Shown here one piece after another: positions 4,307 through 34,079 of a stretch of 46,096 nt of DNA. The stretch spans positions 1 to 46,096 of the forward strand of contig DASVNL010000056.1 of the NCBI GenBank assembly GCA_036383875.1. Direction: 5' to 3'. The stretch is from Thermoanaerobaculia bacterium. GTDB lineage: Bacteria; Acidobacteriota; Thermoanaerobaculia; Gp7-AA8. A program made the translations under genes and the position numbers. Position 1 is the stretch's first letter, and every line of letters starts with the position of its first letter. The notes below the pieces were generated by a model. It searched no databases. It had not been told where the DNA came from and worked only from the letters and a program-made list of their open reading frames with translations.

Positions 4307-5956
4307 ATGTGTCAGGTTCGGACGGCCGTACTCCTTGCTGCCTTGCTGTCGATGCCCCTGTGGTCACAAGCGACATTCGCGCAGGCGCCGCTCGTCGAGT
4401 CGATCGAGGTGCGCGTCGTGAACGTCGATGTCGTAGTGACGAATCGCGCGGGCGTGCCGGTCACGGGGCTGACCGCGGACGACTTCGAATTGCTCGAGGA
4501 CGGGCGCAAGCAGCCGCTCACGAACTTCTACGAAATCGAGTCGAGCGAAGACGGACAGACGACGCGCACGAAGGATGGCGCGGAGCTGCGACCGCGACGC
4601 TTTTTCTTTTTCATCGACGCGAGCTCGCTCTATCCGCAGGTGCGCGATGAGCTGGTGACGTCGCTGCGCCACTTCGTCAGCGAACAGATGCGCCCGGACG
4701 ATCAGGCGTCGGTGCTCGTGTGGAACGGGCAGATTCACGTGCTCTCGCCGCTGACGAAGAGTCGCAGCGAAGCGGATGCGGCGCTGCAGAAGGCGAGCAC
4801 GCTCGCGACGAGCGGTGCGGTGCGCAACGAAGTGAGTCGCATTCAGTCGCGCTGCGCGAAGGCACTCGAGCTCGGACGCGCCGGACGTCTGCCGATGCGC
4901 GCGGCGTATCTCGACTGCATCAACAACGCGAACGACGAGACCGACGCGACGGTCGCGGCGTCGCGACGCATGCTCAACGCGATGCGCGTGACGCTGGCGA
5001 TGATGGGCGGCGTCGACGGGAAGAAAGTGATGGTGGTGGTCGGCGCGCAGTTGCCGAAGAAGCCGGGCGTCGAAACGTTTCTCTGGGCGAACTCGCTGTT
5101 CACGCCGTTCCTCACGGGCTGGGACGCGCCACGCGCGCGCTACAACGAGGATCGCCCGCTGGCGATGGACGTCGCGGATCTCGCGAACACCGCGAACTCG
5201 GCAGGCGTGACGATGTATCTGATGAATGCGCCGATTCCCGCCGATCCGATCAGCGCATCGCACGACTACGGCGTGTCGGATCAGGGAATGGATTTCTTTC
5301 ACAGTGCGAACACGGGCGAGGCGTTCGCCGAGCTCGCGCGACTCACGGGCGGGATGTCGGCGGATCATCGCTTCAACTCCGACGCAATGTTCCAGGCCAT
5401 CCGACGCGATCTCAGCTCGTACTACTCCCTCGGCTACAAACCAAAGGAGCACGGCGGCGCGCCGCGCCACATCACCGTGCGCGCGAAGAATCGCGAGTAC
5501 ACGGTCCGCGCGCGGCAGACGTTCATCGATCGCACGGCGACGGAGCAGATGAACGACCGCGTCATCGCGAACGTGTTCAACCCCGCGCCGAATCCGGACT
5601 GGCCGATCCTGGTGCACATCGGCGCGCCGGAGCGCCAGGGCTCGACCGCCAAGGTCGCGCTCGAAGTGGTGATCCCGCCGAGCGCAATCACGTTGTTGCC
5701 GCAGGAGAAGATTCTCACCGGCGGATTCACGGTCTGGATCGCGGTCGGCGACAAGCGCGGCGCGCTGTCGACGGTCTCGCGCAGCCCGCAGATCGTCGAC
5801 GTGCCGCTGAATGAAGAGAAGACGTTCCGCTCGACGCCGATCGTGTTCACGGCTCAGGTGACGGTCCGGGCCGGCGAGAACCTCGTGTCGATCGGAGTGA
5901 CGGATCGAATCACGGGGACGGCGGGGTTCGGACGGGCAGTGGTGAAGGCCGAGTAG
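4307..5956 (+). CDS. secreted VWA-domain protein of the acidobacterial VWFA-related type (TIGR03436-like)
   Basis: 549-aa ORF with signal peptide MCQVRTAVLLAALLSMPLWSQATFAQA. The family-typical N-terminal block IEVRVVNVDVVVTNRAGVPVTGLTADDFELLEDGRKQPLTNF is followed by FFFFIDASS (VWA beta-1 region). GC3 is high in this frame. The overlapping antisense ORF 4364..7972 is an Arg/Asp/Glu-rich shadow. Confidence 0.85.
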   Translation: MCQVRTAVLLAALLSMPLWSQATFAQAPLVESIEVRVVNVDVVVTNRAGVPVTGLTADDFELLEDGRKQPLTNFYEIESSEDGQTTRTKDGAELRPRRFFFFIDASSLYPQVRDELVTSLRHFVSEQMRPDDQASVLVWNGQIHVLSPLTKSRSEADAALQKASTLATSGAVRNEVSRIQSRCAKALELGRAGRLPMRAAYLDCINNANDETDATVAASRRMLNAMRVTLAMMGGVDGKKVMVVVGAQLPKKPGVETFLWANSLFTPFLTGWDAPRARYNEDRPLAMDVADLANTANSAGVTMYLMNAPIPADPISASHDYGVSDQGMDFFHSANTGEAFAELARLTGGMSADHRFNSDAMFQAIRRDLSSYYSLGYKPKEHGGAPRHITVRAKNREYTVRARQTFIDRTATEQMNDRVIANVFNPAPNPDWPILVHIGAPERQGSTAKVALEVVIPPSAITLLPQEKILTGGFTVWIAVGDKRGALSTVSRSPQIVDVPLNEEKTFRSTPIVFTAQVTVRAGENLVSIGVTDRITGTAGFGRAVVKAE

Positions 5957-5957
5957 C

Positions 5958-6101
5958 GGTTGGCGGTTCGCGAGCCTTCGGCTCGCTGGCGGTTGGCAGT
6001 TGGCGGTGGGCCTCCGCCCGGCCACGTTGAATTTTTCGGTCTCGGTTCTCCCGCCAACCGCCAACCGCCAGCGCGCCGACAGGCGCGCGAAACCGCCAAC
6101 C
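5958..6101. repeat. composite palindromic intergenic element built from (G/A)GTTGGC heptads, copy 1
   Basis: Outer 11-bp perfect stem: GGTTGGCGGTT 5958-5968 with AACCGCCAACC 6091-6101. Side hairpin 5970-5986 (GCGAGCC-ttc-GGCTCGC). Inner stem 5987-6006 with 6051-6070, 20 positions with 1 mismatch. Side hairpin 6071-6088 (GCGCGCC-gaca-GGCGCGC). The element starts 2 nt after the VWFA stop codon (TAG 5954-5956). Confidence 0.8.
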
Positions 6102-6127
6102 CACACTACAATCCCCCCGGTCCAATC

Positions 6128-8479
6128 GTGCTCCTCCTTCTCTATCTCCTCACCGGCCTGGCGTTGCTCTGGCTGATCGGGCGATTCGTGCGTCCGGTCT
6201 CGTGGGCGGCAGCCGCTGTGTTGATTGCGATGCCGCTGGCGATCGTCGGGGCGGCGGTCGTGACGGGGGGCGTGTATGGGCCGCTCGATCATTCGTTTCA
6301 GGACGAGCCGTTGAAGGCGTTCGGCGCGCAGTTCGGCGTCACCGGTGCGGCGAAGAACGCGTCGTCGATCGACATCTTCTCGGAGTTCTTTCCGTGGCGG
6401 CGGATGGTGCAGCTTTCCTTCGCACGTGGCGAGTGGCCACTTTGGAATCCGTACAACCTCGCCGGACATCCACTGGGCGCCGAAGTGCAGTCCGCGCCGT
6501 ACCTGCCGTTCACGTGGATCGCGTGCTTGTTGCCCGCGGCCGTGAGCCTCAGCTACACCGCGGCGATCGGACTCTTCATCGCCGCGGTTGGCGCATTTTT
6601 GTTCGCGCGTGAATTGGGGTGTCGCGAATCGTCGGCGCTCGTCGCGGCGGCGGGGTGGGGATTCGCGTCGTGCAACGTCCTCTACATCCTCACCGCGATG
6701 GGGATGGCCACCGTCTTCCTCCCGCTGATCCTCTTGGCATGCGCGCGCGTCGTGCGACATCCGGGCGTCGCGTCGTGCGCGATGCTGACCGTCGCGTTGT
6801 CCCTCACGATTCTCGCGGGACATCCCGAGTCGCTGTTCCTCAACGTCATCATCGGCACGATCTACGCGCTCTTCGAGCTCGCGCGCAATCGTGCAACCGC
6901 GTTGCGCGGGATCGCGACGGCGTGCGTCGCGGGTGCGCTCGCATTCGGCATCTGCGCGATCTCGTTGTTGCCGCTCATCGAGGCGATCCCGCAGTCGAGT
7001 GAGTTCCTGCTCAAAGGACACATGATGGGCGAGCGCTCGCAGCGAGTGTCGAGCGCGGAAGTGCTGGCCAATCTCGCGACCGATCTCTACCCGCATCTGC
7101 ACTTGCGCGAGTGGGCGCAGCCGAAGCTCGGACGCATCGGCGCGGAGACCGCGGCCGTCGGCAGCTTGCTCATCGCGCTTGCTGTCTACGCGATCTTCCG
7201 CAGGCGTTCCGCGGAGACGTGGTTCTTCGCCGCGGTCGCGCTGTTCTGCATGCTCGCGGGCGCGCGCTGGAGTCTGATCGCCGACGCCGCGATGCATCTC
7301 CCTTTGCTCGAGATCACGATGCTGCATCGCCTCGCGTTCTCCGCCGCGCTCTTCCTCGTGATGCTCGCCGCCCTCGGCGTCGAAGAAATGCTGCGTCGCG
7401 ACGATCGCACCATCGCCGCGCTGGCCATCGCCGTCGTCTTCGCCATCCTCGGCGGCGGAATGCTCTGGTTGAACCGCAACGTCGTGCTCGCGATCACCGC
7501 CGCGGACTACGGCAAGTACCGCGTGTTCGCGGAGTTGTTCTTCCCGATCGTCGCGATCGTGCTGCTCGCGGTGAAGCGCGTGCCGATGCGCGTCGCGATG
7601 CCGTTGCTGCTCGCGCTCGTGATCGGCCAGCGCGCGCTCACGGAGATCGACACGTTTCCGACGTTCCCTGCGAAGGCCGCGTACCCGGAGTTGCCGTTGC
7701 TCGAGCCGCTGAAGAACGTCCGCGAGCCGTTCCGCCTCGTCGGCGCGGCGACGGCGTTTCCGCCGGCGACGAACATCTTCTACGGCCTCGAAGACCCGCG
7801 CGGCTACGACGCGCTCACGCTCGACGAATTTCAGCGCACGTACCGTCTGTGGTGCCGCCGTTACGGCATCTGGTACAACCGCGTCGACGATCTCACGCGA
7901 CCGTTCCTCTCGATGCTGAACGTGCGCTTCGCGGTGCAACACGAGTCCGCGCCGATTCCGAACGGCTGGCATTCAGTGAAAGTCGATCGCGGCGCGCGGC
8001 TGATCGAGAACGAGCACGTGCTCGACCGCGTGTTCATCCCGCGCCGCGTGCAACCAACCGGCGCGCACGCGATGGAGATCGTCGATCGGATGGACGACAT
8101 CCGCGATTTCCGCGAGCTCGCGTACATCACGTCGCGCGACACGCTCGACTTTCCCGAAAACGGTCCTGGCCTCATCACCCTCCGCTCCCATCGCCTCGGC
8201 GGCGAGTACCGCTTCGACGCAACCATGCAGCGCGAAGGGTGGGTGGTGATTTCGGAGTGTGCGTGGAAGGGGTGGCGCGCGTACGTCGATGGCGAACGCG
8301 TCCCGCTCCGCCGCGCCAACGCCGCCTTCCTCGGCATCCGCGTGCCCGCCGGACAACACGCCGTGCGTGTCGTGTATTGGCCGTCGTCGTTCGTAACGGG
8401 TCGCGCGATTACCTTCGCGACGCTGCTCGCGATCGTGATCGTCGCGATCGTTCTGCGCGTGCGTTCACGTCGCGCGTGA
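6128..8479 (+). CDS. polytopic membrane protein, YfhO-like (putative glycosyltransferase-type membrane protein)
   Basis: The ORF-track frame 5960..8479 begins inside the repeat element. A GTG at 6128 starts the hydrophobic N-terminus VLLLLYLLTGLALLWLIGRF. There are many predicted TM segments and the block FFPWRRMVQLSFARGEWPLWNPYNLAGHPL. A C-terminal soluble domain is followed by a final TM (ITFATLLAIVIVAIVL). The family call comes from overall architecture only. Confidence 0.65.
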   Translation: MLLLLYLLTGLALLWLIGRFVRPVSWAAAAVLIAMPLAIVGAAVVTGGVYGPLDHSFQDEPLKAFGAQFGVTGAAKNASSIDIFSEFFPWRRMVQLSFARGEWPLWNPYNLAGHPLGAEVQSAPYLPFTWIACLLPAAVSLSYTAAIGLFIAAVGAFLFARELGCRESSALVAAAGWGFASCNVLYILTAMGMATVFLPLILLACARVVRHPGVASCAMLTVALSLTILAGHPESLFLNVIIGTIYALFELARNRATALRGIATACVAGALAFGICAISLLPLIEAIPQSSEFLLKGHMMGERSQRVSSAEVLANLATDLYPHLHLREWAQPKLGRIGAETAAVGSLLIALAVYAIFRRRSAETWFFAAVALFCMLAGARWSLIADAAMHLPLLEITMLHRLAFSAALFLVMLAALGVEEMLRRDDRTIAALAIAVVFAILGGGMLWLNRNVVLAITAADYGKYRVFAELFFPIVAIVLLAVKRVPMRVAMPLLLALVIGQRALTEIDTFPTFPAKAAYPELPLLEPLKNVREPFRLVGAATAFPPATNIFYGLEDPRGYDALTLDEFQRTYRLWCRRYGIWYNRVDDLTRPFLSMLNVRFAVQHESAPIPNGWHSVKVDRGARLIENEHVLDRVFIPRRVQPTGAHAMEIVDRMDDIRDFRELAYITSRDTLDFPENGPGLITLRSHRLGGEYRFDATMQREGWVVISECAWKGWRAYVDGERVPLRRANAAFLGIRVPAGQHAVRVVYWPSSFVTGRAITFATLLAIVIVAIVLRVRSRRA

Positions 8480-10933
8480 GATCGCGTCGCGCATCGCGTG
8501 TGCGAGCGAGGCGACGTCTTCGTGCAACACCGTCATGTGCTCGCCGTCGACTTCGACGACGTCGAGGTTTGCGCAGTAGCGGTTCCAACCGAGGTCGCGA
8601 TGCAGGGCGTCGGTGCCCCAGCCGTGCCGGGCGATGAAGAGCGTCACGCGTCCGGAGTACGGCTGCAACGCGTCGCGCTTGCGTACGGCGGAGTACAGCA
8701 CCTGCAGCGGCGGCACGACCGGCGGCTCGGCGTAAAGCGAGAAGCCTTTGCCCCGCAGCCAGCGCGTCATACCCATCAACCTCCGTCCAATGGCACCAAG
8801 GTACCGTGGTGTGTGGGTACGCGGGTGGTGCACGAGCAGGTCGAGATGTTTGGCGAGCCGCTTCCACTTCGGACCCAGCGTCGTGTCGAGCGCCGTGTCG
8901 ATCATCCCTGCGAACGCAACGTGCTGACCCGCGAGTGAGAGTTGCCGCGCGACGTCGAGCGTGACCATGCCGCCTGCGGAGTAGCCCGCGATGAAGTACG
9001 GACCTTCGGGCTGGATCGCGCGGATCGCGTCGACGTAGCACGCGGCCATCGCGGGGAACGTCTTCGGGAACGTCTCGGGGAGAAAGCCGTCGTGCGTGAG
9101 TCCGATGACGGTCTGCTCTGCGCCGAGACTCGCGGCGAGTTTGCGATAGGCGATGACGCTGCCGCCTTTGCCCGAGACGAGGAACAGCGGATGCGCGCTC
9201 GTGCCTTGTTGCACGGTCACGGCGAGACGATCGCGATCCGTGCGCGTGCGCAGGTAGTCCGCCATCTTCGTGACGGTGTTGAGCTCGAGGAGTGCGGAGA
9301 GCGCGAGGTTGCGGCCGAGGAGGCGTTTCACTTCGGCGACGAGATAGGCGGCGACGATGGACTCGCCGCCGTGGTCGTTGAAGAAATCATCGTCGGGTGC
9401 GACGGCGGCGTTGAGCACGCGCGACCAGATGTCGAGCAGCGTGCGCTCGATCTCGTCGCCGTCGTGATGTGTGTCGTCGATGACGATCGTCTCGACGCGA
9501 TCGCGCAACGCGTGACGATCGACTTTGCCTGCGCGCGTCATCGGGATCGCGTCGATCGCGTGAATGCGCGACGGGATCAGGTACGCGGGGATGTTGTCGC
9601 GCAGCGCGGCGCGGATGTCGCGCGGAACGCACGGCGCGTTGTCGCGCATCACGACGTACGCGACGAGATGCGACTCGCCGTCCGCGTCCTGTTTGCCGAC
9701 CGCGACGGCTTCGCGCACGTTCGCGTACTGCAGCAGCGCCGACTCGACTTCGAGCGGATCGATGCGGCGTCCGTGAATCTTGAGGCGTGAGTCTTTGCGG
9801 CCCACGAAGTAATGCAGGCCGTCGGCGTCGCGCTTCACGAGATCGCCGGTGTGGAACGTGCGGTGGCCGGACGTCGAATCGAACGTAAACTTCTGCGCGG
9901 TCAGTTCGGGATCGTTCCAGTAGCCTTCGACGACATGCGGACTGGTGACGATCAACTCGCCCGGCTCGTTGTCCGCGACTTCATGGCCGTCTTCGCCGAC
10001 GAGACGCAGCGCGACGTTCGGACGTGGACGTCCGATCGGTACGAGCGGGCCGGGCACGGGCGTGTCGTGCGTGATGCTGATGTGCGTGACCATCCCGGTT
10101 TCGGTCGCGTTGAAGCCGCGCTCGAGCGTGCAGGTGCGCGGGAATCGCGCCTTGAACGCTTCGACGTCGGCGATGGTCATCACGTCCGCGCCGATCCGCA
10201 GTTTGCGAATCGTCGAGAGGTCGAGGTCCGCGGGGATGACGCGCATGAAGCGGCGGAACAGCGCGGGCGTGAGGGTGAGGATCGAAACGCGCTCGCGCGT
10301 GATGAACGCGGCGAGGTCGTCGAGCGTTTCGGTGCGCGCGTCGTAGGCGCAGAGCGTCGCGCCGTTCATCAGTGAGCCGAGGATTTCGTACGTTGCGCGG
10401 GCGAAGCCGGGGAGGGCGGTGTAGCTCACGCGCTGGCCGGCCTCGCGTCCCGTGACGCGCGCCTGCGCGACCATGCGCTCGACGAGTCCGCGCTGTTTGT
10501 GCGCGACCGCTTTCGGTTTGCCCGTCGTGCCGGACGTGAAGATGAGTTGCACGATCTCGTGCGGCTCGCGCGCGATCGGTTCAACGGATGCATTCGCGAG
10601 CGGGACGACGTCCGCGTCGGCGATCGTGATCGACGCGTTGCTCGCGGCACGGATCGCGTCGAGGCGCTCCGCGGGTTCGCTCGCGTCGAGGATCACGAAG
10701 TAGTGGCCGGCTTTGAGTGCGCCGAGGAGCGCGGGGACGAGCGCGATGGCGTCGCGCATCACGAACGCGATCGGACGATCGAGCGGTGCGTCGCGCGAGA
10801 CGAGCATCGCCGCGACCGCGTCGGACCAGCGATCGAGATCGCGATACGTGTACTGCGCGCGCGGCGACGTGAGCGCGGCGACGTCCGCGAATTCGCGCGC
10901 GGCGTTGCGGAAGGCGTCAGCGACGGATGTCAT
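8465..10933 (-). CDS. stand-alone NRPS-like enzyme: adenylation - thiolation (PCP) - thioesterase (A-T-TE)
   Basis: A-domain cores: LIFTSGTTGKPKAV (A3), FNATETG (A5), HTGDLV (A7), GRKDSRLKIHGRRIDPLEVE (A8), PMTRAGKVDR (A10). Carrier motif FFNDHGGESIVAAYL. TE motifs LFLVSGKGGS and GYSAGG, plus a C-terminal VDGEHMTVL. The ATG at 10933 overlaps the permease stop (ATGA); an alternative ATG lies at 10942. The ORF-track N-terminal extension to 11713 overlaps the permease gene and is rejected. Confidence 0.9.
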   Translation of the reverse strand: MTSVADAFRNAAREFADVAALTSPRAQYTYRDLDRWSDAVAAMLVSRDAPLDRPIAFVMRDAIALVPALLGALKAGHYFVILDASEPAERLDAIRAASNASITIADADVVPLANASVEPIAREPHEIVQLIFTSGTTGKPKAVAHKQRGLVERMVAQARVTGREAGQRVSYTALPGFARATYEILGSLMNGATLCAYDARTETLDDLAAFITRERVSILTLTPALFRRFMRVIPADLDLSTIRKLRIGADVMTIADVEAFKARFPRTCTLERGFNATETGMVTHISITHDTPVPGPLVPIGRPRPNVALRLVGEDGHEVADNEPGELIVTSPHVVEGYWNDPELTAQKFTFDSTSGHRTFHTGDLVKRDADGLHYFVGRKDSRLKIHGRRIDPLEVESALLQYANVREAVAVGKQDADGESHLVAYVVMRDNAPCVPRDIRAALRDNIPAYLIPSRIHAIDAIPMTRAGKVDRHALRDRVETIVIDDTHHDGDEIERTLLDIWSRVLNAAVAPDDDFFNDHGGESIVAAYLVAEVKRLLGRNLALSALLELNTVTKMADYLRTRTDRDRLAVTVQQGTSAHPLFLVSGKGGSVIAYRKLAASLGAEQTVIGLTHDGFLPETFPKTFPAMAACYVDAIRAIQPEGPYFIAGYSAGGMVTLDVARQLSLAGQHVAFAGMIDTALDTTLGPKWKRLAKHLDLLVHHPRTHTPRYLGAIGRRLMGMTRWLRGKGFSLYAEPPVVPPLQVLYSAVRKRDALQPYSGRVTLFIARHGWGTDALHRDLGWNRYCANLDVVEVDGEHMTVLHEDVASLAHAMRDAISRAT

Positions 10934-11682
10934 TGCTGCCATGGCGTGACTCGGCGCAGCAGCGCCTGGATGATCGCGTTCACGGTGATGCCGATGATCG
11001 AGATGATGACCACACCCGCGTACAGGTTCTCTGTACGCATCGTCTGCAGCGCGAGCCAGATCACCGAGCCGATGCCCGGACTCATGACCGTGAACTCGAT
11101 GGCGATCGTGACGAGCAGGCCGAGGTTCGTGGCGATGCGGATGCCGTTGAGGATCATCGGCAGACTGCCGGGCAGCACGACATGACGAAACGTGTCGAAG
11201 CGCCCGCCGCCGTAGTTGCGCACGACTTCGAGATAGAGCGGCGAGATCGCGCGCGCGCCGGCGGATGCGTTGATGAGCGTCGGGAAGAAAACCGTCAGCG
11301 CGATCGACGCGATCTTCGCCCACTCGCTCACGCCGAAGATGACGATGAAGAGAGGGAAGAGCACGATCTTCGGCAGCGGATGGATCGCGGAGATGAACGG
11401 ATCGACGACGCGGCGCAGGCGCGGCAGCCAGCCGATGCAGAGTCCGAAGAGGATGCCCGGGATCGAGCCGGCGATGACGCCGCCGAAGAATCGCAGCAGT
11501 GAGATGCCGATGTTGTGAAACAGATCCTGCCGCACGAGCGTCACCAGCGCTTTGGCGATGAGTGACGGCGGCGGAAAGATCAGCGAATCGATCCAGAGCT
11601 TGCGCGCGGCGACCTCCCACAGCGCGATCAGCGCGACCGCGATCGTCGCGGCAAGGAGGCGGTCTTTCGTGCTGTCGCTCAT
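10930..11682 (-). CDS. ABC transporter permease, NitT/TauT (SsuC/TauC-like) family
   Basis: 250-aa ORF with about 6 TM segments and a binding-protein-dependent permease layout (LLRFFGGVIAGSIPGILFGL, EAA-loop-like region NASAGARAISPLYLEVVRNYGG). It shares 4-nt ATGA overlaps with both neighbours. Confidence 0.9.
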   Translation of the reverse strand: MSDSTKDRLLAATIAVALIALWEVAARKLWIDSLIFPPPSLIAKALVTLVRQDLFHNIGISLLRFFGGVIAGSIPGILFGLCIGWLPRLRRVVDPFISAIHPLPKIVLFPLFIVIFGVSEWAKIASIALTVFFPTLINASAGARAISPLYLEVVRNYGGGRFDTFRHVVLPGSLPMILNGIRIATNLGLLVTIAIEFTVMSPGIGSVIWLALQTMRTENLYAGVVIISIIGITVNAIIQALLRRVTPWQQ

Positions 11683-12452
11683 GTCGGCACCGCCAGGCTC
11701 TCGCGCACTTCAAGCTCGAGGAGGCTCCAGATGCGTTGCCGCAGCGCGACCGCTTCCGCGCTCGCGAGGACTTCGAACGTGCGCGGTCGGGCGAACACGA
11801 CCGGCAACTCGGCGCGAATCGTTCCGGGCCGTCCGCTCATCACGACGATGCGATCGCTGAGCAGGATCGCCTCGTCGATGTCGTGCGTCACGTGGACGAC
11901 GACGCGGCGGTGTTCCTGCCAGATGCGCAGCAGTTCCTGTTGCAACACGAGGCGCGTCTGCGCGTCGAGCGATCCGAACGGCTCGTCGAGCAGGAGGATC
12001 GCAGGGTCGGCGACGAACGCGCGCGCGATGCCGACGCGCTGGCGCATGCCGATCGACAACTCATGCGGACGGTGATGCTGAAACTTGCCGAGACCGACCT
12101 GCTCGATGAAATGTCGCGCGCGTGCGAGTGCGGTGGCGCGCGGGACGTTTTGAAAACGGAGGCCGAGGGCGACGTTTTCGAGGACGTCGTACCACGGCAA
12201 GAGTCCGTGGTCCTGAAACACGAGCGCGGTCTGGAGTTTGTCCGGCGTCGCGTCGGAGAACGTGACCGTGCCGGCGCTCGGAGTCACGAGGCCGGCGAGG
12301 ATTTTGAGCAGCGTCGTTTTGCCGCAGCCGCTCGGACCGACGATCGACACGAACTCCGCGGGCCTCGCCGCGAGGCTCACGCCTGCGAGGGCGATGGTCC
12401 GCGTCGATCCGCTGCCGTAGTCTTTCTCGATCGCGTCGAGGACGAAGGTCAT
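11679..12452 (-). CDS. ABC transporter ATP-binding protein (SsuB/TauB/NrtD-like)
   Basis: Walker A GPSGCGKTT, Q-loop VFQD, signature LSIGMRQRV, Walker B ILLLDEPFGSLD and H-loop VTHD. The start MTFVLDAIEKDYG at 12452 overlaps the SBP stop (ATGA). The ORF-track extension to 12605 is rejected. Confidence 0.9.
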   Translation of the reverse strand: MTFVLDAIEKDYGSGSTRTIALAGVSLAARPAEFVSIVGPSGCGKTTLLKILAGLVTPSAGTVTFSDATPDKLQTALVFQDHGLLPWYDVLENVALGLRFQNVPRATALARARHFIEQVGLGKFQHHRPHELSIGMRQRVGIARAFVADPAILLLDEPFGSLDAQTRLVLQQELLRIWQEHRRVVVHVTHDIDEAILLSDRIVVMSGRPGTIRAELPVVFARPRTFEVLASAEAVALRQRIWSLLELEVRESLAVPT

Positions 12453-13444
12453 CGATCTTTCTGCGCGGCCTCGACGAACGCCGGGTTCCACCACTGCGCG
12501 ACGGTCATCGGTGCGTCGAGGAGTTTCTGCTGCAGTGCCCAGTCGAGGAACGGCTGCACGCGCTCGGGGCGAATGCGGCCGTCGTCGTAGAACGCGGTCC
12601 AGCACATGTTGCGCACGATCGGCTCGTCGAGCTTCGTGTGCTTCGTCAGGATGGCCACGTTGCGATCGGTCTTCCCCTGGTTGTACTGCCTCACGCCGCG
12701 CAGGTACGCGCGCATGAACGCGTGTCCCGTCGCGGGCTCGTCTTCGTTGAGCCGCTTGCCGTAGACGAGCAGCGCGTTCTGATGCTCCGGCTCGATCTCT
12801 TCCGCGCTCGCGACGATCTTCGCCCAGCCGTCATGCAGGATGCCGCTGAGGTTCGGCTCGGTGGTGAGGCGCACGGCGTCCATCTTGTCGCGCGTCGTTG
12901 CGGGCGTGCCCGAGGGAAGCTGAATCATCGTGACGTCTTGCAGCGTCGCGCCGCGCGACTGGAGCAGTCGCAACGTGAGGAATTCGTTCAAGCCGCCGCG
13001 CGTGAGCGCGATGCGCTCGCCGCGCAGCTTGCCGCCGTTCGCCGCGATGCGCTCGGCCGTCGCGATCGGCGCGATGAACGCGTCGGCGACGCAGTTGGTC
13101 GTCGAGTGGCCTTTGTCGGCCACGACGCGCATGTGACCCGTGCGCGCGATCATGTTGAACACGCCGGAGCGCACGCCCGACGAAAGCACATCGAGCTTGC
13201 CGGCGGCCGCCGCGGCGACGGCGGAGTTCGAGTCGAGCGTCGCGATTTCGATGTCGATGCCTTCCTGCGCGAAGAATCCTTCCTCCAACGCGATCATGAG
13301 CGGCGCGTAGGTCAGCGAGGGATTCATGTTCATCACGACCTTCGCGAGCTTCGGCTTCGGCGCCGGTGCGGGCGCTTCTTTTTTGCACGAGAAGGCGGCG
13401 ATGATCGCGATGATCGCGATGGCGATGCGCTTGTTCAGACTCAC
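12449..13444 (-). CDS. ABC substrate-binding lipoprotein, NMT1/THI5/SsuA-like (NitT/TauT family)
   Basis: The GTG at 13444 gives VSLNKRIAIAIIAIIAAFSCKK (lipobox AFSC). The mature part reads LAKVVMNMNPSLTYAPLMIALEEGFFAQEGIDIEIATLDSNSAVAAAAAGKLDVL, typical of this SBP family. The GTGA overlap with the receptor stop is at 13441-13444. The ORF-track extension to 15097 is an out-of-frame shadow over the receptor gene. Confidence 0.85.
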   Translation of the reverse strand: MSLNKRIAIAIIAIIAAFSCKKEAPAPAPKPKLAKVVMNMNPSLTYAPLMIALEEGFFAQEGIDIEIATLDSNSAVAAAAAGKLDVLSSGVRSGVFNMIARTGHMRVVADKGHSTTNCVADAFIAPIATAERIAANGGKLRGERIALTRGGLNEFLTLRLLQSRGATLQDVTMIQLPSGTPATTRDKMDAVRLTTEPNLSGILHDGWAKIVASAEEIEPEHQNALLVYGKRLNEDEPATGHAFMRAYLRGVRQYNQGKTDRNVAILTKHTKLDEPIVRNMCWTAFYDDGRIRPERVQPFLDWALQQKLLDAPMTVAQWWNPAFVEAAQKDR

Positions 13445-15465
13445 GGTTTGCTCCACGACGTGACGCGGATTCCGGCGGTGAAGGTGCGCGGCAGGCCGGT
13501 GCGGAACGAGGTCGGGGTGAGGGCGAAGTAGTAGCCCTGATCGAACACGTTCTCGAGTGTCGCGTAGACGTCGATCCACGGGCGCACGGTCTGCGAGACC
13601 GCGAGGTCGATGACGCGATGCGCGGGCGAGACCGCGAGGTTCGCGGCTTCGCCGTACTGGCGGCTCAGCACGCGGCCGCGCGCGTCGATGGTGGTTCCGC
13701 GATCGCCGCGGAATCGCACGCCGAGCGATCCGATGTGCTTCGAGACTTCGGGAATCATGTTGCCGACGATCGCGGGATCCGGATCTTCGATGATGGTCGA
13801 ATCGGCGTAGGTGTAGCCAGCGTTCATCGACCACTGCCGCGCCAGTCGCGCTTCGGCGATGAGCTCGAAGCCCTGCGCACGCGCGGTGCCGAGGTTCACG
13901 GTTTGAAAGACGTTGGCCGGAGCGCCGGCGAGGTGTGCGCGCGAGACGAGTCCGTCGATCGTGCTGCGATAGACGTTCATCTCGACGCGGCCATGGTCGC
14001 CGGCCCACTCGTATCCGAGCTCGCCGCCGACGAGCGTCTCCGGCTTGAGGTACGGATTGCCGAGGACGAGGCTGTTGCCGGTCTGGTTGTTGCGGTACAT
14101 GTCGCGCAGCGCGGGGGCGCCGAACGCGCGATAGATCGAGCCGCGCACCGCGGACTGCGCGTTGATCGCGTAGCGCACGGAGATGCGCGGATCGAGTTGC
14201 GTCGACGACTGCGACGGATAGATGGTCGCGGCGCCGCCGATGACGGCGTCGGAACCGTTGTCGTTCTTGAAGATGTCGACGCGCGCGCTGGTCAGCACTT
14301 CGACGCGATCGTGCGGACGCCAACTGGTCTGCGCGAAGAATCCGATCGAGGTCTGCTCGCCGGTGACGAGGTTGCGCGCGGTGGTCGCGCCGCTGCGATT
14401 GAACGTCACGCGGCTTTCCTCGGCTTTGGTCTGACGGACGTCCACGCCGACGGAGACGAACGGGAGGACACCCCGACGTTGCAGCGACCACTCGAGCGAG
14501 CCGCCCGCGACGGTCGACGGGATCGTCGCGTCCTGCGAGACGAATTCGGACTCGCGCTGGCCGATGATCGTCGAGTTGACGAGCCGTTCTTTCTGGCGCT
14601 GATAGAACGCGCTGCCGTTGAGGAACGCGTTCGAGCCGAACGCGCGATGTGCGCCCGCGGACGTTTCGAGCACGTCGCGCGCGGTGTAGGTGCCGGGCGT
14701 GCCCTGCGAGATGTCGATCTGCGCGACGCTGCCTTTCGCGAAGGCGGCAGCGGTGTCGGAGAATTTGTAGTCGGCGCGGCCCGCGGTCATCCAACTGTCG
14801 CCCCAGCCGCGCGTGTCGATCGGGCCGGGATTCGGGACGCGCATGTAGCCGTCGGACTGATTGCGGTTGTAGTTCACGCGCACGGCGAGGCTGTCGGTGA
14901 GCGTGCGATCGACGGTGAGGGTCTGGCGTTCGGTGGCGTTGGTGCCGTACGAGACGTCGGCGGTGATCGCGTTTTCTTCGACCGGTTTGGTGATGAGGTT
15001 GATGGTGCCGCCGAGGGCGAAGTTGCCGAAGAGGCTCGTGTTGCCGCCGCGCACGACTTCGACCTGGCGCAGGCTGTCCATCGGAACGCGCTGCCACTGC
15101 ACGATGCCGCTGTAGGGATCGTGCAGCGGGATGCCGTCGAGGAGGACGAGCGCGCGCGTGCCGCCGAGGCCGTGCATCGAGATCTTCTGGTTGTTCGGCG
15201 TCGAGCCGCTGCCGCTGACGATGGCCATGTGCACGCCGGGGATGGTGCGCACGAGATCGTCGACGCTGCGCGCGGGCGCATGCTCGATGTCTTCTTCTTT
15301 GATGGCGGTGGCGCTGACGGGGAGCTCGCTCACCGCGCGCTCGCTGCGCGTCGCGGTGACGACGATGGCCTCGTCGACCTTGGGAGTTTCGGGAACCTGG
15401 TTCTCAGGCGTGGCCGGCTGTTCGCCAGCAATCGCGAACGCGAGCAGGAGGGACAAAACGTACAT
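13441..15465 (-). CDS. TonB-dependent outer-membrane receptor
   Basis: 674 aa. Signal peptide MYVLSLLLAFAIA. Plug-domain motifs DEAIVVTATR, DLVRTIPGV, GTRALVLLDGIPL and VEVVRGGNTSLFG. A long beta-barrel region carries alternating aromatic and polar repeats. Confidence 0.9.
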   Translation of the reverse strand: MYVLSLLLAFAIAGEQPATPENQVPETPKVDEAIVVTATRSERAVSELPVSATAIKEEDIEHAPARSVDDLVRTIPGVHMAIVSGSGSTPNNQKISMHGLGGTRALVLLDGIPLHDPYSGIVQWQRVPMDSLRQVEVVRGGNTSLFGNFALGGTINLITKPVEENAITADVSYGTNATERQTLTVDRTLTDSLAVRVNYNRNQSDGYMRVPNPGPIDTRGWGDSWMTAGRADYKFSDTAAAFAKGSVAQIDISQGTPGTYTARDVLETSAGAHRAFGSNAFLNGSAFYQRQKERLVNSTIIGQRESEFVSQDATIPSTVAGGSLEWSLQRRGVLPFVSVGVDVRQTKAEESRVTFNRSGATTARNLVTGEQTSIGFFAQTSWRPHDRVEVLTSARVDIFKNDNGSDAVIGGAATIYPSQSSTQLDPRISVRYAINAQSAVRGSIYRAFGAPALRDMYRNNQTGNSLVLGNPYLKPETLVGGELGYEWAGDHGRVEMNVYRSTIDGLVSRAHLAGAPANVFQTVNLGTARAQGFELIAEARLARQWSMNAGYTYADSTIIEDPDPAIVGNMIPEVSKHIGSLGVRFRGDRGTTIDARGRVLSRQYGEAANLAVSPAHRVIDLAVSQTVRPWIDVYATLENVFDQGYYFALTPTSFRTGLPRTFTAGIRVTSWSKP

Positions 15466-15510
15466 TGGGAAGAACCTCGGAGACGAAGACTTTGGACGGC
15501 GGGAGTATAC

Positions 15511-15572
15511 GTGGAGCGACAGGCTCTTAGCCTGTCGGCGCGATTCGGCGGGCTGAGAGCCCGCCGCTCCAC
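15511..15572. terminator. nested double-hairpin element immediately 3' of the GGDEF-EAL gene (possible U-tract-less terminator or insulator)
   Basis: The outer stem GTGGAGC (15511-15517) / GCTCCAC (15566-15572) encloses two hairpins: GACAGGCT-ctt-AGCCTGTC (15518-15536) and GGCGGGCT-gag-AGCCCGCC (15547-15565). It abuts the stop codon (TAG, plus-strand cta at 15572-15574). There is no U tract. Confidence 0.4.
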
Positions 15573-17701
15573 TAGACCGCCACGAGGTTGCGTTCCGCGA
15601 GGGGCGACGGCCGGTCGATGAAGAATCCCTGCGCGTAACGCACGCCGAGGGCGCGCAGCCGATCCATCGTCTCGGCGTCTTCGACCCATTCGGCGATGCA
15701 TTCGATCTCGCGAAGCCGCGCCAGTTTCACGAGCGAGCCGATGATCACTTCGCTCGCGGGATCGCTGCGAAGCTGCTGCACGATGCGGCCGTCGATCTTC
15801 ACGTACGTCACCGGCAATTCCTGCAGGTAGGCGAAGCTCGCGACGCCGGCGCCGAAGTCGTCGAGCGCGAGATCGAATCCGCGGGCGCGCAGATCCTTCA
15901 TCGCCTGCACGGCCTGTCGCAATCGGTGAATCACGACGCCTTCCGTGACTTCGAGACAGAGCCGCCGTGGGTCGACGCCGTAGCGTTCGGGGAGGCGGAT
16001 CACGTGTTGGTAAAAGTCGGGATCGTTGAGCGTCGAGCCGGAGACGTTGATGCTCAGTCGGAGGTCGTGTTCGTCCGACTCCGCGAGATGGCGGCACGCG
16101 TGCTCGACGACCCAGCGGTCGATCTGCTCCATGAGCCCGAAGCGTTGCGCGACGGGGAGGAACTCCGCGCTTGGATGCACGCCGCCATCGGACGCGAGTC
16201 GGAGCAGCACTTCATCGAACGGCCGCGACGTCGCGCCGGTGATGTCGACGATGGACTGGCGGTACAACTGCAGCCGTCCGTCCTGCATCGCCATCTCGAG
16301 CTGCGACACCTGCTGAATGGATGAGTGCCAGCGCAGCATCGCCTCGTCGCGTGGGAGGTAGACATGCGAGCGATGGCGGCCGTCTTCCTTCGCGACGTAG
16401 CAGGCGATGTCGGCGCGGCCGAGGACCGCGTCGGCAGTGTCGCCGTCATCGGCGGGGAAGAACGTGATGCCGATACTCACGCCGACGCCGAAGCTCATCG
16501 AGCCGTAGCGAAAGCGATAGCTCGCGACCGCGTCGTGCAAGCGCGTCGCGAGGGCGAGCGCCTGTTCCTCGCTCATGTCGTACGCGATGCACGCGAACTC
16601 GTCGCCGCCGAGTCGCGCGAGGACGGACCCGGGCGGCGCGGTACGCAACAGCTCGACGGAGAGCTCCTGCAACATCCGATCGCCGGCGATGTGGCCGCAC
16701 GTGTCGTTCACGAGCTTGAACTGATCGAGATCGAGATACAGCAGCGCGTGCGCGGATGGCACGCCGCTGAGCACACCGTCGCTCAGTCGGCGTTCGAGCT
16801 CGTGGCGATTCACGAGGCCGGTGAGCGGATCGTGATGCGCGAGTTGGAAGAGGCGTTTCGCGTTGAGCTCGCGCTCGCCCCACACCACCGCGAGGATGTA
16901 GCCCGTCACGGTGGACGTGCCGACGAAGATCACGCGGATGATGCTGCTCATCCGATCGACCGGCGCGCCGACGTGCATCGCGACGAAGATGAACAACAGA
17001 ATCGCGCCGGACGCCGCGGCGCCGGGCATGCCGCCGACGGTCGCGGTGAAGACGACGAGTGGCAGCAGCAGGAAGATCGTCGCGGAGAAACGCTCGCCGC
17101 CGTTCGCGATCAGGATGCCGGCGATGATCAGCAGCAGCGAGACGGCGAGCCAGCGCTCGAACGCTTTGCGGCTGTGAAACGGCCAGCGCCGCCAGCCGAG
17201 AATCAACGGCACAAAGATCAGGATGCTGATCGAGTCGGAGAGCCAGAACGAGAGGCCGTCGGCGATGAGGCGTCGCAGGACGCGCGTCTCGAAGAAGTAT
17301 TCGCCCGCGATGGTCGCGAGTCCGCCGACGATGGGCGCGAGGATCGCGCCGGTGGTGAAGAGCGTGAGATCGCGCAGACGTTGGAGGTCACGCGAGACGC
17401 GGAAGTTCAACATCACCGCGCAGAAGATCGTCGTGACGAGAAGCTCGATGCACGCGACGAGGATCGCGACCCAGAAGTTGTGCGACGCGTTGTAGCTGAG
17501 GACGAACTGCGCGAGGACGATGGCAGGCCAGTAGCGAAAGCCGAGTCCCCACAACACCGCCACGCCGAGTCCCGTCGCCGGATAAACAAGGCTCACCCCA
17601 TTCCTCGGTTGGAGAAAGAGCACGGCGAGACTGAACAGCACGAGACCCGCTGACAGCCCGAGGACAGCGCCGAGATACCGCGCGGAAGCACCGACCCGCA
17701 T
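15572..17701 (-). CDS. MASE1-GGDEF-EAL membrane signalling protein (c-di-GMP turnover)
   Basis: 709 aa. The N-terminus is a multi-TM MASE1-like sensor. GGDEF domain: HHDPLTGLVNR and RLGGDEFA. EAL domain: FDEVLLRL (EVL variant of EAL), LEVTEGV, DDFGAGVASFAYLQELPVTYVKID and IAEWVE. Confidence 0.9.
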   Translation of the reverse strand: MRVGASARYLGAVLGLSAGLVLFSLAVLFLQPRNGVSLVYPATGLGVAVLWGLGFRYWPAIVLAQFVLSYNASHNFWVAILVACIELLVTTIFCAVMLNFRVSRDLQRLRDLTLFTTGAILAPIVGGLATIAGEYFFETRVLRRLIADGLSFWLSDSISILIFVPLILGWRRWPFHSRKAFERWLAVSLLLIIAGILIANGGERFSATIFLLLPLVVFTATVGGMPGAAASGAILLFIFVAMHVGAPVDRMSSIIRVIFVGTSTVTGYILAVVWGERELNAKRLFQLAHHDPLTGLVNRHELERRLSDGVLSGVPSAHALLYLDLDQFKLVNDTCGHIAGDRMLQELSVELLRTAPPGSVLARLGGDEFACIAYDMSEEQALALATRLHDAVASYRFRYGSMSFGVGVSIGITFFPADDGDTADAVLGRADIACYVAKEDGRHRSHVYLPRDEAMLRWHSSIQQVSQLEMAMQDGRLQLYRQSIVDITGATSRPFDEVLLRLASDGGVHPSAEFLPVAQRFGLMEQIDRWVVEHACRHLAESDEHDLRLSINVSGSTLNDPDFYQHVIRLPERYGVDPRRLCLEVTEGVVIHRLRQAVQAMKDLRARGFDLALDDFGAGVASFAYLQELPVTYVKIDGRIVQQLRSDPASEVIIGSLVKLARLREIECIAEWVEDAETMDRLRALGVRYAQGFFIDRPSPLAERNLVAV

Positions 17702-21633: not shown

Positions 21634-24930
<3,297 letters not shown>

Positions 24931-24989
24931 GGGGGGATGGTAATGCGGGGCGGGGTCGCGCGCGTTACCGAAATGGAATGGGTTGGATG

Positions 24990-25074
24990 TTTGGCGGTTG
25001 GCAGTTGGCGGTTGGCGGGAGGCCCCCAACCACCACGGCTTCGCTTCTAACTGCCAACCGCCAACCGCCAACTG
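24990..25074. repeat. GGTTGGC-heptad palindromic element, copy 2
   Basis: Perfect 17-bp stem CAGTTGGCGGTTGGCGG (25002-25018) with CCGCCAACCGCCAACTG (25058-25074), and a 39-nt loop. The arms consist of (G/A)GTTGGC heptads as in copy 1. It lies 2 nt from the stop of the minus-strand JAMM gene (stop at 25077-25079). Confidence 0.8.
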
Positions 25075-25076
25075 AA

Positions 25077-25532
25077 TCATCCCCACATCTCACACGCCTC
25101 GGTCGCGACGTCGCCACCCACCCAATCCCGCCTCACCAACTCCTTCGTCGTGCGATCGGGATCGACGCGGGCGATTGACGTGCGCGTGATCACGTAGATC
25201 GGGAGGCCGGTGCGGGCGGCCTCGTTGATGTCGTGTTGCGAGGGCTTGGGCATGCCGTGCGGGTGGGTGTGCGCGATGGCGACGGTGTTGGGCGGGACGG
25301 GGCCGCGGTAGCTGGCTTTGCGGCGCTGCTGCGTTGCGGGCCAGAGTTTGTAATCGAGGTTGCCGGCGTCGTCGCGCGTGAGGAACAGCGCGCGCTCCGT
25401 GTCCTTCGCCGCGGTGTGCGAGGCTTCGTAGAGATCGGAGAAGATCGGCATCATCTGGCGCCGCGTCAGATCGCATTCGGCACGCGTGGCGCTCAACTGC
25501 AGAACGAGGAGAACGGCGATCGCGATGTTCAT
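25077..25532 (-). CDS. small secreted protein with a JAB/MPN (JAMM) metalloprotease motif
   Basis: 151 aa. Signal-like N-terminus MNIAIAVLLVLQLSATRA. AHTHPHGMPKPSQHD fits H-x-H-x(7)-S-x(2)-D exactly (encoded at 25230-25271). An upstream Glu (TERALFL) is also present. Confidence 0.7.
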   Translation of the reverse strand: MNIAIAVLLVLQLSATRAECDLTRRQMMPIFSDLYEASHTAAKDTERALFLTRDDAGNLDYKLWPATQQRRKASYRGPVPPNTVAIAHTHPHGMPKPSQHDINEAARTGLPIYVITRTSIARVDPDRTTKELVRRDWVGGDVATEACEMWG

Positions 25533-27153: not shown

Positions 27154-27246
27154 CCGCACAACGTTGGCACACTTCCTGATTTCTCACGAGCGTCCGGTGG
27201 TAGTGACACTACCGCCTAACAATCTTGAGAGGGGATGAGGTGCAGC

Positions 27247-30720: not shown

Positions 30721-30781
30721 GTGAACTGACATCGAACATACCGGCGGCCCTCATCCCCACACCCATCCAGTCGCCGGTGGC

Positions 30782-30817: not shown

Positions 30818-30836
30818 CGCCGTATCATTCGCGACC

Positions 30837-34071
<3,235 letters not shown>

Positions 34072-34079
<8 letters not shown>

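Follow-up and report, generated by a model that had tools for sequence, protein, structure and literature searches.

The window, the whole 46,096-nt stretch of Thermoanaerobaculia DNA that was analyzed (GenBank assembly GCA_036383875.1, contig DASVNL010000056.1), carries on its minus strand five genes chained by GTGA or ATGA start/stop overlaps. In order of transcription, these encode a TonB-dependent receptor, a lipoprotein substrate-binding protein, an ABC ATPase, a permease, and a stand-alone NRPS-like A-T-TE enzyme (Table 1). The five open reading frames, their order, and the four overlap junctions are as a preliminary description of the DNA had claimed; frames, sequence, and domain calls agree, and HMM annotation confirmed the receptor, NMT1/SsuA binding protein, ABC_tran, BPD_transp_1, and A-T-TE domains. 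The A-T-TE gene has an alternative start, an in-frame ATG at 10942, 9 nt further upstream, which would give a 13-nt overlap. The database copy of the protein has 825 aa, and gene callers disagree over the same start in two related loci, L317 and L318. Whichever start is used, the A-T-TE gene overlaps the stop codon of the permease gene.

The 7-kb operon stretch contains no C domain, MbtH, PPTase, exporter, or DNA-binding regulator, as had also been noted. Downstream lies a convergent YfhO-like gene; upstream lies a MASE1-GGDEF-EAL gene on the same strand, across a 106-bp gap that holds a strong hairpin (−53.4 kcal/mol, z-score −4.86). None of 200 shuffles folded equally well, the hairpin arms are unique within the window, and no Rfam family matched. 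The hairpin is likely a terminator that separates the operon as its own unit. Ten of 13 related loci have a (G/C)(T/C)TATACT box 40 to 60 nt 5′ of the receptor gene, and the copy in the window is a candidate promoter element.

Table 1. Features of the operon and its upstream region, in window coordinates
Feature	Position	Strand	Basis or remark
Long hairpin between upstream GGDEF-EAL gene and operon promoter	15511..15572	-	RNA fold
TATACT, -10-like box (candidate), ~40 nt 5′ of receptor start	15504..15509	-	Read from sequence
GAGGT, likely ribosome-binding site of receptor gene	15474-15478	-	Read from sequence
TonB-dependent outer-membrane receptor, 674 aa	13441..15465	-	Pfam Plug + TonB_dep_Rec barrel
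Junction receptor/binding protein	GTGA 13441-13444	-	Read on minus strand
Lipoprotein substrate-binding protein, NMT1/SsuA/TauA/ThiY fold, 331 aa	12449..13444	-	Pfam NMT1, NMT1_2; TIGR01728
Junction binding protein/ATPase	ATGA 12449-12452	-	Read on minus strand
ABC ATPase, 257 aa	11679..12452	-	ABC_tran 3.7e-31
Junction ATPase/permease	ATGA 11679-11682	-	Read on minus strand
ABC importer permease, NitT/TauT type, 250 aa	10930..11682	-	BPD_transp_1 3.7e-23
Junction permease/A-T-TE	ATGA 10930-10933	-	Read on minus strand
Stand-alone NRPS-like A-T-TE enzyme, 822 aa (825 aa from 10942)	8465..10933	-	AMP-binding, AMP-binding_C, PP-binding, Thioesterase
A core	9917-10912	-	Pfam
Arg179 codon (Arg182 in 825-aa numbering), specificity-code position 236	10397..10399	-	HMMER alignment to LgrA
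Second Arg codon, in LRIGAD, near position 299	10196-10198	-	Present in 45/47 homologues
A C-terminal subdomain	9524-9751	-	Pfam
A10 Lys codon	9524-9526	-	Invariant, 47 homologues
T domain	9251-9442	-	Pfam
Carrier Ser codon	9359-9361	-	Invariant, 47 homologues
TE	8468-9190	-	Pfam
TE Ser, Asp, His codons	8978-8980, 8897-8899, 8537-8539	-	Invariant, 47 homologues

Receptor and importer genes

Domain searches of the receptor identified a plug (2.9e-26) and a barrel (4.6e-41). The protein has a signal peptide and a TonB-box-like AIVVTATR at residues 33 to 40, and an N-terminal signalling extension is absent. Its scores lie under all curated receptor subfamily cut-offs (for PqqU, 82 vs. a cut-off of 1200), and its closest solved structures are the catecholate receptors PiuA, CirA, and PirA, plus BtuB, all weak matches (≤91 bits) that mostly span the plug domain. 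The binding protein begins with a lipobox-like AAFSC, in which Cys19 is at least 90% conserved among 41 homologues; Cys117 and Cys280 are invariant in the homologue alignment. In Foldseek searches, its AF2 model (pLDDT 93) matched thiamin, sulfonate, taurine, FAMP, nitrate, and PQQ binding proteins with TM ∼0.7 at 12 to 20% identity. The binding-protein family (164 matches at E ≤ 1e-5) is restricted to the cassette's own lineage, and all permease homologues with inspected context belong to the cassette.

The importer combines an NMT1/SsuA-fold binding protein with a TauC/SsuC-type BPD_transp_1 permease and a TauB-like ATPase, which places it in the NitT/TauT family. SsuABC, TauABC, ThiXYZ, NrtABCD/CmpABCD, and the PQQ binding protein PqqT share these fold and protein families, whereas the cassette components score under every orthologue cut-off and are joined by a TonB-dependent receptor and an A-T-TE enzyme. 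Specifically, the binding protein scored 66 bits against the TIGR01728 SsuA family (cut-off 163); the best NCBIfam matches of the ATPase were taurine, nitrate, and SaoA ATPases, all sub-cut-off (TauB, 214 vs. 357); and those of the permease were SaoP, TauC, and SsuC, likewise under the curated cut-offs (TauC, 119 vs. 342). With scores below the curated equivalog or subfamily cut-offs, the components do not qualify as orthologues of Ssu, Tau, Nrt, ThiXYZ, or PqqU/PqqT.

The A-T-TE enzyme and its substrate pocket

The adenylation domain (AMP-binding, 6.2e-56; AMP-binding_C, 9.7e-16) contains the FTSGTTGKPK A3 loop and the GKVDR motif. The carrier domain (PP-binding, 1.8e-11) has an HGGES motif with invariant Gly-Gly and Ser, the predicted site of phosphopantetheine attachment, and the thioesterase (1.6e-22), with a fold like EntF-type TEs, retains an invariant GYSAGG Ser, Asp, and GEH His. 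The catalytic residues are intact and all invariant, so selection keeps the enzyme functional. Pfam searches found no Condensation domain in the enzyme. The structures closest to its AF2 model (pLDDT 88) are the NRPS termination modules EntF, AB3403, SrfA-C, and ObiF1, minus their C domain (Foldseek E 1e-48 to 1e-54). The A-T-TE part of these modules is alike in fold, domain order, core motifs, carrier Ser, and TE Ser-Asp-His. In contrast, the cassette enzyme lacks a condensation domain, partner modules, an MbtH gene, and Asp235, has Arg236, and is encoded in an importer operon. A known primary-metabolism ligase, which the preliminary description had considered as a way for its proposal to fail, is not what the last gene encodes, given these structural matches and scores below every NCBIfam equivalog cut-off.

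In amino-acid-activating A domains, Asp235 holds the α-amino group of the substrate. The specificity code of the cassette enzyme, mapped by sequence alignment only, reads A-R-Y-A-R-G-G-M-V-K. Position 235 is Ala, and A, T, I, V, or G across the family; at position 236, all 47 aligned homologues carry Arg, as does every listed family member with the motif. The pocket carries a non-amino-acid signature: Asp235 is missing and the TIGR01733 score is 270 vs. a cut-off of 317, which does not fit an amino-acid-activating A domain, including that of A-T-TE enzymes of the MysE/Ava_3855 type. From the missing Asp235, the invariant Arg236, and the Arg near position 299, the predicted substrate is an anionic acid, not an amino acid. 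Pockets of Asp- and Glu-activating A domains carry Lys or His, and it is by analogy with these that the Arg pocket is read as fitting an anionic acid. Arg236 occurs only in the Thermoanaerobaculia family; distant cassettes have other non-Asp pockets.

The published code for aromatic α-keto acids, V-A-E-F-S-G-G-A-C-K, does not match the mapped code, which at the level of the code sets the cassette enzyme apart from quinone and furanone synthetases that dimerise such acids. The fungal atromentin and terrequinone synthetases and the bacterial ralfuranone synthetase RalA, non-reducing NRPS-like enzymes that dimerise aromatic α-keto acids, are likewise stand-alone A-T-TE enzymes with non-amino-acid substrates whose TE alone forms the product (PMC9047271). 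These enzymes sit with tailoring genes, whereas the cassette enzyme sits with an importer.

Conservation of the cassette

The A-T-TE family comprises ∼90 homologues of 44 to 78% identity, is sharply bounded, and comes nearly entirely from Thermoanaerobaculia. Upstream sequence is available for 16 family loci, and in 15 of them the gene lies directly after the ATPase-permease genes (the window, L317/L318, L150, L001, L059, L060, L063, L153, L155, L156, L062, L064, L151, and L152); in L003, a family member on a 5-kb contig, a surface-repeat protein replaces the upstream ABC genes. In every family locus with gene calls, the ATPase and permease genes overlap by 4 nt, and the permease and A-T-TE genes overlap or are ≤31 nt apart, except in L064. 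All 12 loci with enough flank have the receptor-binding protein pair ≤4 kb away, in three gene orders. The pair relocates as a unit in L062 and L064, stands alone in L146, and is subject to duplication: L145 has two pairs in tandem, L230 four binding proteins, and L155 a second receptor. These pairs behave as swappable front ends and the enzyme keeps to the cytoplasmic entry step; the invariant unit is ATPase-permease-A-T-TE. No tailoring, precursor, or C-domain gene is conserved across the loci. Linkage and gene content are conserved: the survey of relatives, set beforehand as the test of the preliminary description, found the genes syntenic down to 44% A-T-TE identity, rearranged orders included. 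Its recurrence in relatives means that chance does not account for the arrangement.

A more distant version, its A-T-TE at ∼32% identity, occurs in Holophagales, other Acidobacteriota, and Gemmatimonadota. The A-T-TE gene is likewise directly 3′ of the permease gene in L147, L194, L222, L230, and L233, and in L147 the ATPase-permease junction is not the 4-nt overlap. In L194 (Gemmatimonadota), the transport genes sit between an amino-acid-type second A-T-TE gene and a C-A NRPS; in L222 (Holophagales), the next gene after A-T-TE, beside the same transport genes, encodes an MsbA/HlyB-like exporter. The claim that the importer is the enzyme's only partner therefore holds for the Thermoanaerobaculia form and fails at these two loci.

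Possible roles of the cassette

The best reading, which we favor tentatively and at less than even confidence, is that import is coupled to activation of the incoming acid, which the TE then remodels. The conserved linkage of the enzyme to the ATPase-permease core speaks for this reading, as does the lack of any conserved partner gene for secretion or assembly in the loci surveyed. In this scheme, the receptor and its partner lipoprotein would catch a scarce extracellular anionic organic acid and pass it over the outer membrane and periplasm, and the ATPase-permease core would move it into the cytoplasm. The co-translated A-T-TE enzyme would adenylate the carboxyl of this non-α-amino acid, gripped by Arg236 and probably also by the Arg near 299, and its carrier domain would receive the acid as a thioester. 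The Ser-Asp-His TE may then release the acid as a remodelled product by cyclising it, condensing it with itself (oligomerisation), or passing it to an acceptor in the cell, so that an exogenous compound would be salvaged or rebuilt. The importer type, NitT/TauT and equipped with an NMT1-fold binding protein, suits a small organic anion as cargo; the ligands of solved relatives are sulfonates, taurine, nitrate, bicarbonate, thiamin precursors, and PQQ. The non-amino-acid pocket also fits the "imported carboxylic acid" of the preliminary description. We infer that the imported compound is anionic and is the A-T-TE substrate, and that the TE acts as proposed; a purely hydrolytic TE would render the pathway futile, so other, unproven TE chemistry must be assumed. 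In vectorial acylation (FadL-FadD) and in Mpl with MppA/Opp, an ATP-dependent ligase activates an imported acid upon entry. These serve as working analogies, the enzymes being a CoA ligase and a Mur ligase without carrier domain or thioesterase, whose genes are not in one operon with a receptor.

The extra NRPS genes of L194 and the exporter of L222 point instead towards biosynthesis of a secreted compound. The restriction of Arg236 to the Thermoanaerobaculia family and the replaced ABC genes of L003 also count against the import reading. The preliminary description offered two roles, activation or remodelling of an imported acid and import of a precursor for a TE-released product; both are import-based proposals, and they leave out the standard reading of an NRPS with a TonB-dependent receptor, a secreted chelator and its re-uptake. 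In such a minimal metallophore (or other shared good) system, the main rival reading but a doubtful one in our judgment, the A-T-TE enzyme would turn a non-amino acid of the cytoplasm into a small chelator, for instance through TE-catalysed self-condensation, an exporter encoded elsewhere would secrete it, and the receptor, binding protein, and ABC genes would retrieve the loaded form. An NRPS with an adjacent TonB-dependent receptor is the accepted predictor of siderophore-type clusters (PMC10875860). Siderophore clusters with their own receptor and ABC importer resemble the cassette in setting an NRPS-type enzyme beside receptor, binding protein, and importer, the closest solved relatives of the receptor are catecholate-siderophore receptors, and the extra pairs or receptors of L145 and L155 recall multiple receptors pirating foreign siderophores. 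However, those receptor matches are weak and plug-centered, and the importer is not of the FecCD/Peripla_BP_2 type. Among the 12 Thermoanaerobaculia cassettes with enough flanking sequence, none has an adjoining exporter; the closest exporters lie 8 to 9 kb off, in L062 and L063 only. An AT-rich Fur-box-like palindrome, the sign of metal-responsive control looked for, was found 5′ of the receptor in none of 13 loci, a weak point since the operator of the host lineage may differ. Moreover, the enzyme is linked not with the receptor, which bears the specificity, but with the generic ABC core, and a lone, single-module A-T-TE enzyme without precursor genes could make very little.

It is improbable that the cassette serves Ssu/Tau/Ats-like uptake of organosulfur or other small-anion nutrients, with the A-T-TE enzyme as the first catabolic activation, as in sulfoacetate-CoA ligase. 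The binding protein, permease, and ATPase do score best against the SsuA, TauC/SsuC, and TauB families, with SsuA and TauA among the top fold matches, yet all these family scores lie far under the curated cut-offs. Pseudomonas sulfate-ester uptake genes are accompanied by TonB-dependent receptors, and a gene with an FGE-sulfatase domain lies directly 5′ of the receptor in L059, but at that locus only; the cassette has no conserved desulfonating oxygenase (SsuD/TauD type), reductase, or sulfatase, and a TE end gives neither the aldehyde nor the CoA ester that such pathways require. Linkage without functional meaning, with the A-T-TE gene carried in a transporter operon by inherited synteny, is very improbable: the phylogeny is narrow enough for some common order by descent, and the closest relatives (the window, L150, and L317) also share flanking genes, but the cassette is retained while flanks differ wholly between most loci, its five genes stay together in three orders, the contigs bearing the binding-protein, permease, and A-T-TE families largely coincide, and the coupling of ABC genes to A-T-TE recurs in the distant version.

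No description of a cassette of TonB-dependent receptor, NitT/TauT ABC genes, and A-T-TE enzyme was found in the literature, in keeping with the earlier remark that the combination was not a recognized system. The cassette matches no described system and keeps its combination despite altered gene order. Within import-coupled activation, it is conceivable, if speculative, that the enzyme does not build from cellular precursors but captures and rebuilds compounds in the cytoplasm, firmly coupled to a two-membrane importer. An imported anionic acid, such as a piece of a chelator or cofactor of another organism left by its breakdown, would be activated as a thioester when it enters, and the TE would then re-cyclise or re-oligomerise it into a usable compound. 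This would be an undescribed use of an NRPS-type enzyme.

Five genes and their predicted transcription unit

Five ORFs occupy 8465-15465 on the minus strand of the window, encoding in order a TonB-dependent receptor, a binding protein, an ATPase, a permease, and a stand-alone NRPS-like adenylation-carrier-thioesterase enzyme (A-T-TE). The junctions are GTGA at 13441-13444 and ATGA at 12449-12452, 11679-11682, and 10930-10933; the ORFs, junctions, and domain assignments were all found to be those of the overlapping five-gene operon claimed in the preliminary description. The receptor carries a signal peptide and a TonB-box-like AIVVTATR, and the binding-protein N terminus has a lipobox-like AAFSC, the Cys of which is at least 90% conserved among homologs, in which two further Cys residues are invariant. 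An in-frame ATG at 10942, 9 nt upstream, is an equally possible start for the A-T-TE; the database copy is 825 aa long, gene callers disagree on the same start in the related loci L317 and L318, and the permease stop is overlapped with either start.

The receptor start lies 106 bp past the end of the upstream MASE1-GGDEF-EAL gene. The gap holds a hairpin (fold −53.4 kcal/mol, z-score −4.86), present as a single copy in the window, which is an imperfect inverted repeat with 22-nt arms directly after the MASE1-GGDEF-EAL stop. It lacks a T-run and matched no Rfam family, and is probably a terminator. Beyond it lie TATACT and then GAGGT. At the other end, a YfhO-like gene is convergent with the A-T-TE gene, overlapping it by 15 nt at its stop, and within the operon no internal promoters or terminators scored above shuffled expectation. 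Taken together, the hairpin, the TATACT/GAGGT elements, the convergent neighbor, and the lack of internal sites fit a predicted single transcription unit from ∼15500 to 8465. The same convergent YfhO-like arrangement is seen in L317. A 1202-aa ORF on the strand opposite the YfhO-like gene has no Pfam match and looks like a shadow ORF.

In 10 of 13 related loci, the receptor start is preceded at a distance of 40-60 nt by a (G/C)(T/C)TATACT box; those named are the window (15474-15509), L001, L059, L060, L064, L145, L150, L153, and L155. Single or repeated CGTCC(A/G)A motifs often come after the box, and the L060 leader contains two copies of the direct repeat ACTCGTCCAACGTC. Judged from its sequence, this region may serve as a leader or an operator; an Rfam scan of the whole window and the leader returned no riboswitch or other family, only chance-level microRNA/sRNA models. 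Away from the operon, L060 and L317 have in common with the window a Sortilin/BNR protein and an adenosine-deaminase-like gene.

Features of the window and of related loci (L-numbers) in other genomes
Feature	Locus and coordinates	Strand	Remarks
TonB-dependent receptor	window	minus	Plug and barrel domains (Pfam/NCBIfam)
Binding protein, NMT1/SsuA-like	window	minus	Pfam/NCBIfam
ABC ATPase	window	minus	Pfam/NCBIfam
BPD_transp_1 permease	window	minus	nearest SaoP, TauC, SsuC (Pfam/NCBIfam)
A-T-TE, 822 aa	window	minus	AMP-binding, AMP-binding_C, PP-binding, Thioesterase domains (Pfam/NCBIfam)
GAGGT	window 15474-15478		
TATACT	window 15504-15509		
Hairpin	window 15511-15572		
YfhO-like gene	window 5960-8479	plus	
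1202-aa ORF	window 4364-7972	minus	
Large Sortilin/BNR-repeat protein	window 21634-25086	minus	
Large Sortilin/BNR-repeat protein	window 30660-34079	plus	
InhA-like M6 peptidase	window 27235-30720	plus	
Ser/Thr kinase with TPR repeats	window 35268-37970	minus	
GAF-PAS hybrid histidine kinase	window 38732-41080	plus	
MASE1-GGDEF-EAL	window 15572-17701; L150:2727-4943; L317:4042-6192		upstream; window and its two closest relatives
FHA-GGDEF	L002:4770-5816; L156:14599-15486		downstream
DUF11 neighbors	L001:99-3254; L153:899-3016; L002:2676-4766; L156:12425-14530; L003:12-2495		
Transport genes upstream of A-T-TE	L222		Holophagales
Cassette with four binding-protein paralogs around one receptor	L230 (25-6400)		Acidobacteriota
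Transport genes upstream of A-T-TE	L233		
Transport genes upstream of A-T-TE	L194		Gemmatimonadota chromosome CP070758
MsbA/HlyB-like ABC exporter	L222:10469-12445		
Second A-T-TE	L194:29-2683		
C-A NRPS	L194:11505-13544		extends past edge of stored locus
A-T-TE clade P0102	L149:4581-12733		
Polysaccharide deacetylase	L147:3555-4313		

Conservation and modularity of the cassette

The A-T-TE has ∼90 homologs of 44-78% identity, nearly all labeled Thermoanaerobaculia or Acidobacteriota, and outside this family identity falls sharply to ∼30%. The synteny on which the preliminary description had made its reading depend is present in these relatives, rearranged orders included, nor does homology place the last gene among known primary-metabolism ligases. 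All five genes keep a single order in ten distinct loci (the window, L317/L318, L150, L001, L059, L060, L063, L153, L155, and L156; the L060 contig is also that of L004, L061, and L154). L062 is rearranged to ATPase-permease-A-T-TE followed by receptor-binding protein, and in L064 a receptor-binding protein pair converges on ATPase-permease-A-T-TE. Contig ends interrupt the cassette in L151, L152, and L002, the remainder being consistent with the pattern, and on the 5-kb contig L003 a DUF11-repeat surface protein, not ABC genes, is encoded directly upstream of the A-T-TE. A metagenome scan returned only seven loci.

The association also holds in the reverse direction. The binding-protein family is small (164 matches at E ≤ 1e-5), and long contigs with the binding-protein and permease families are largely the A-T-TE contigs; the only long permease contig absent from the A-T-TE list (411 kb, L317) encodes the enzyme too. 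Receptor-binding protein pairs are also found apart from the remaining three genes, two in tandem in L145 and one in L146. These free-standing pairs and the rearranged orders indicate a cassette of two tight sub-modules, one of receptor and binding protein and the other of ATPase, permease, and A-T-TE, in which the A-T-TE stays with the cytoplasmic entry step. Flanking genes vary among most loci, and a search for additional shared neighbors across the family loci found none that is general.

Large DUF11-repeat surface proteins adjoin the cassette on either side in five related loci; the C terminus of that in L003 (IPTLSSLALL...RNR) resembles what we take to be an IPTL-CTERM sorting tail. Cyclic-di-GMP signaling genes are likewise frequent neighbors. 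A role for the DUF11 proteins and GGDEF genes was considered; they are neighbors in only part of the family.

Substrate pocket and transport proteins

Each part of the cassette (TonB-dependent receptor, NitT/TauT ABC importer, NRPS-like A-T-TE) is of a known kind, but none reaches any orthologue cut-off. A literature search found no description of the three in combination, which bears out the earlier statement that this is not a described system. The cassette is sharply bounded, conserved, and uncharacterized, and it has a distinctive Arg-bearing pocket.

Among 47 aligned A-T-TE homologs, the A10 Lys, the carrier GG-S Ser, and the TE Ser, Asp, and His are invariant. The AF2 model (pLDDT 88) best matched the EntF, AB3403, SrfA-C, and ObiF1 termination modules minus the C domain; this fold search confirmed the fold and indicated no ligand, and a PDB sequence search with the TE returned generic relatives only. 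In the HMMER alignment to LgrA, FARATYE falls opposite the FDxS A4 motif. Position 235, elsewhere the α-amino-binding Asp, is Ala in the window and A, T, I, V, or G in the family, position 236, residue 179 of the window enzyme, is Arg in 47/47 homologs, and a second Arg, residue 246 of the window enzyme, in LRIGAD near position 299, is found in 45 of the 47. The approximate, alignment-mapped specificity code reads A-R-Y-A-R-G-G-M-V-K. In such codes, a pocket Lys or His recognizes acidic amino acids. From this analogy, the Arg pocket, and the missing Asp235, we infer that the substrate would be an anionic acid, not an α-amino acid.

The binding-protein AF2 model (pLDDT 93) has the NMT1/SsuA/TauA/ThiY fold, with TM ∼0.7 and 12-20% identity to binders of thiamin, sulfonate, taurine, FAMP (a pyrimidine precursor), nitrate, bicarbonate, and PQQ. 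The fold search distinguished no ligand class among these, and a PDB sequence search with the binding protein returned generic relatives only. PQQ uptake was rejected, as similarity to PqqU/PqqT is far under cut-off and not the best match. The receptor is below every curated subfamily cut-off, and its nearest solved structures in the PDB sequence search, catecholate receptors and BtuB, are weak matches only.

Distant cassettes and proposed function

The most distant binding-protein match (35% identity) lies in L147, a binding protein-ATPase-permease-A-T-TE operon whose enzyme is ∼32% identical to that of the window. Enzymes related to the L147 type occur widely, with no transporter, in cyanobacteria, Streptomyces, and further groups, and a subset (L222, L230, L233, and L194) has the same transport genes directly upstream. 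These distant cassettes likewise lack Asp235, but they lack Arg236 too. A neighbor-joining tree of the A-T-TE clades was star-like, neither supporting nor rejecting monophyly of the transporter-linked enzymes. In addition, another A-T-TE clade, P0102, has genes for a CUT1-type sugar ABC importer and for a polysaccharide deacetylase in divergent orientation to it, and a polysaccharide deacetylase gene also lies 1.3 kb upstream of the L147 cassette; A-T-TE enzymes may, these arrangements hint, pair with importers more generally.

We tentatively favor import-coupled activation of an acid. The enzyme keeps to the generic ABC core even as the front ends that bear specificity change position and increase in number, the importer family transports small organic anions, the pocket is suggestive of an anionic acid, and no exporter, precursor, or tailoring gene was found conserved with the Thermoanaerobaculia cassette. 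Such a route requires productive TE chemistry, whereby the TE would then, conjecturally, cyclize, oligomerize, or transfer the activated acid. The binding protein should bind the substrate or product of the A-T-TE.

The main rival, in our view a little less likely, is a minimal system in which a metal chelator is produced, exported, and taken up again; an NRPS adjoining a TonB-dependent receptor is normally read in this way (PMC10875860). Two distant loci favor it: in L222 the exporter gene overlaps the end of the A-T-TE gene, and in L194 the transport genes sit between a second A-T-TE, which TIGR01733 marks as amino-acid type (441 bits, over the cut-off), and a C-A NRPS. However, the importer is of an unlike type, the Thermoanaerobaculia cassettes have no exporter, and no iron box is visible upstream of the receptor gene in 13 loci. 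An organosulfur nutrient operon is improbable, and meaningless hitch-hiking of the A-T-TE gene highly so.

Most often, stand-alone NRPS-like enzymes end up classed as cryptic "NRPS-like" clusters with the product unassigned, and the genomic context here gives a concrete, testable handle on A-T-TE function. Import-coupled activation, if true, would represent a new logic in carrier-protein enzymology, salvage by thioester activation; chelator retrieval, if true, would represent a minimal metal-chelator system using an importer family not previously tied to metal uptake. An assignment of function could cover the whole family of ∼90 Thermoanaerobaculia proteins, relatives of which occur in Holophagales, other Acidobacteriota, and Gemmatimonadota; these soil lineages are abundant and little represented in culture.
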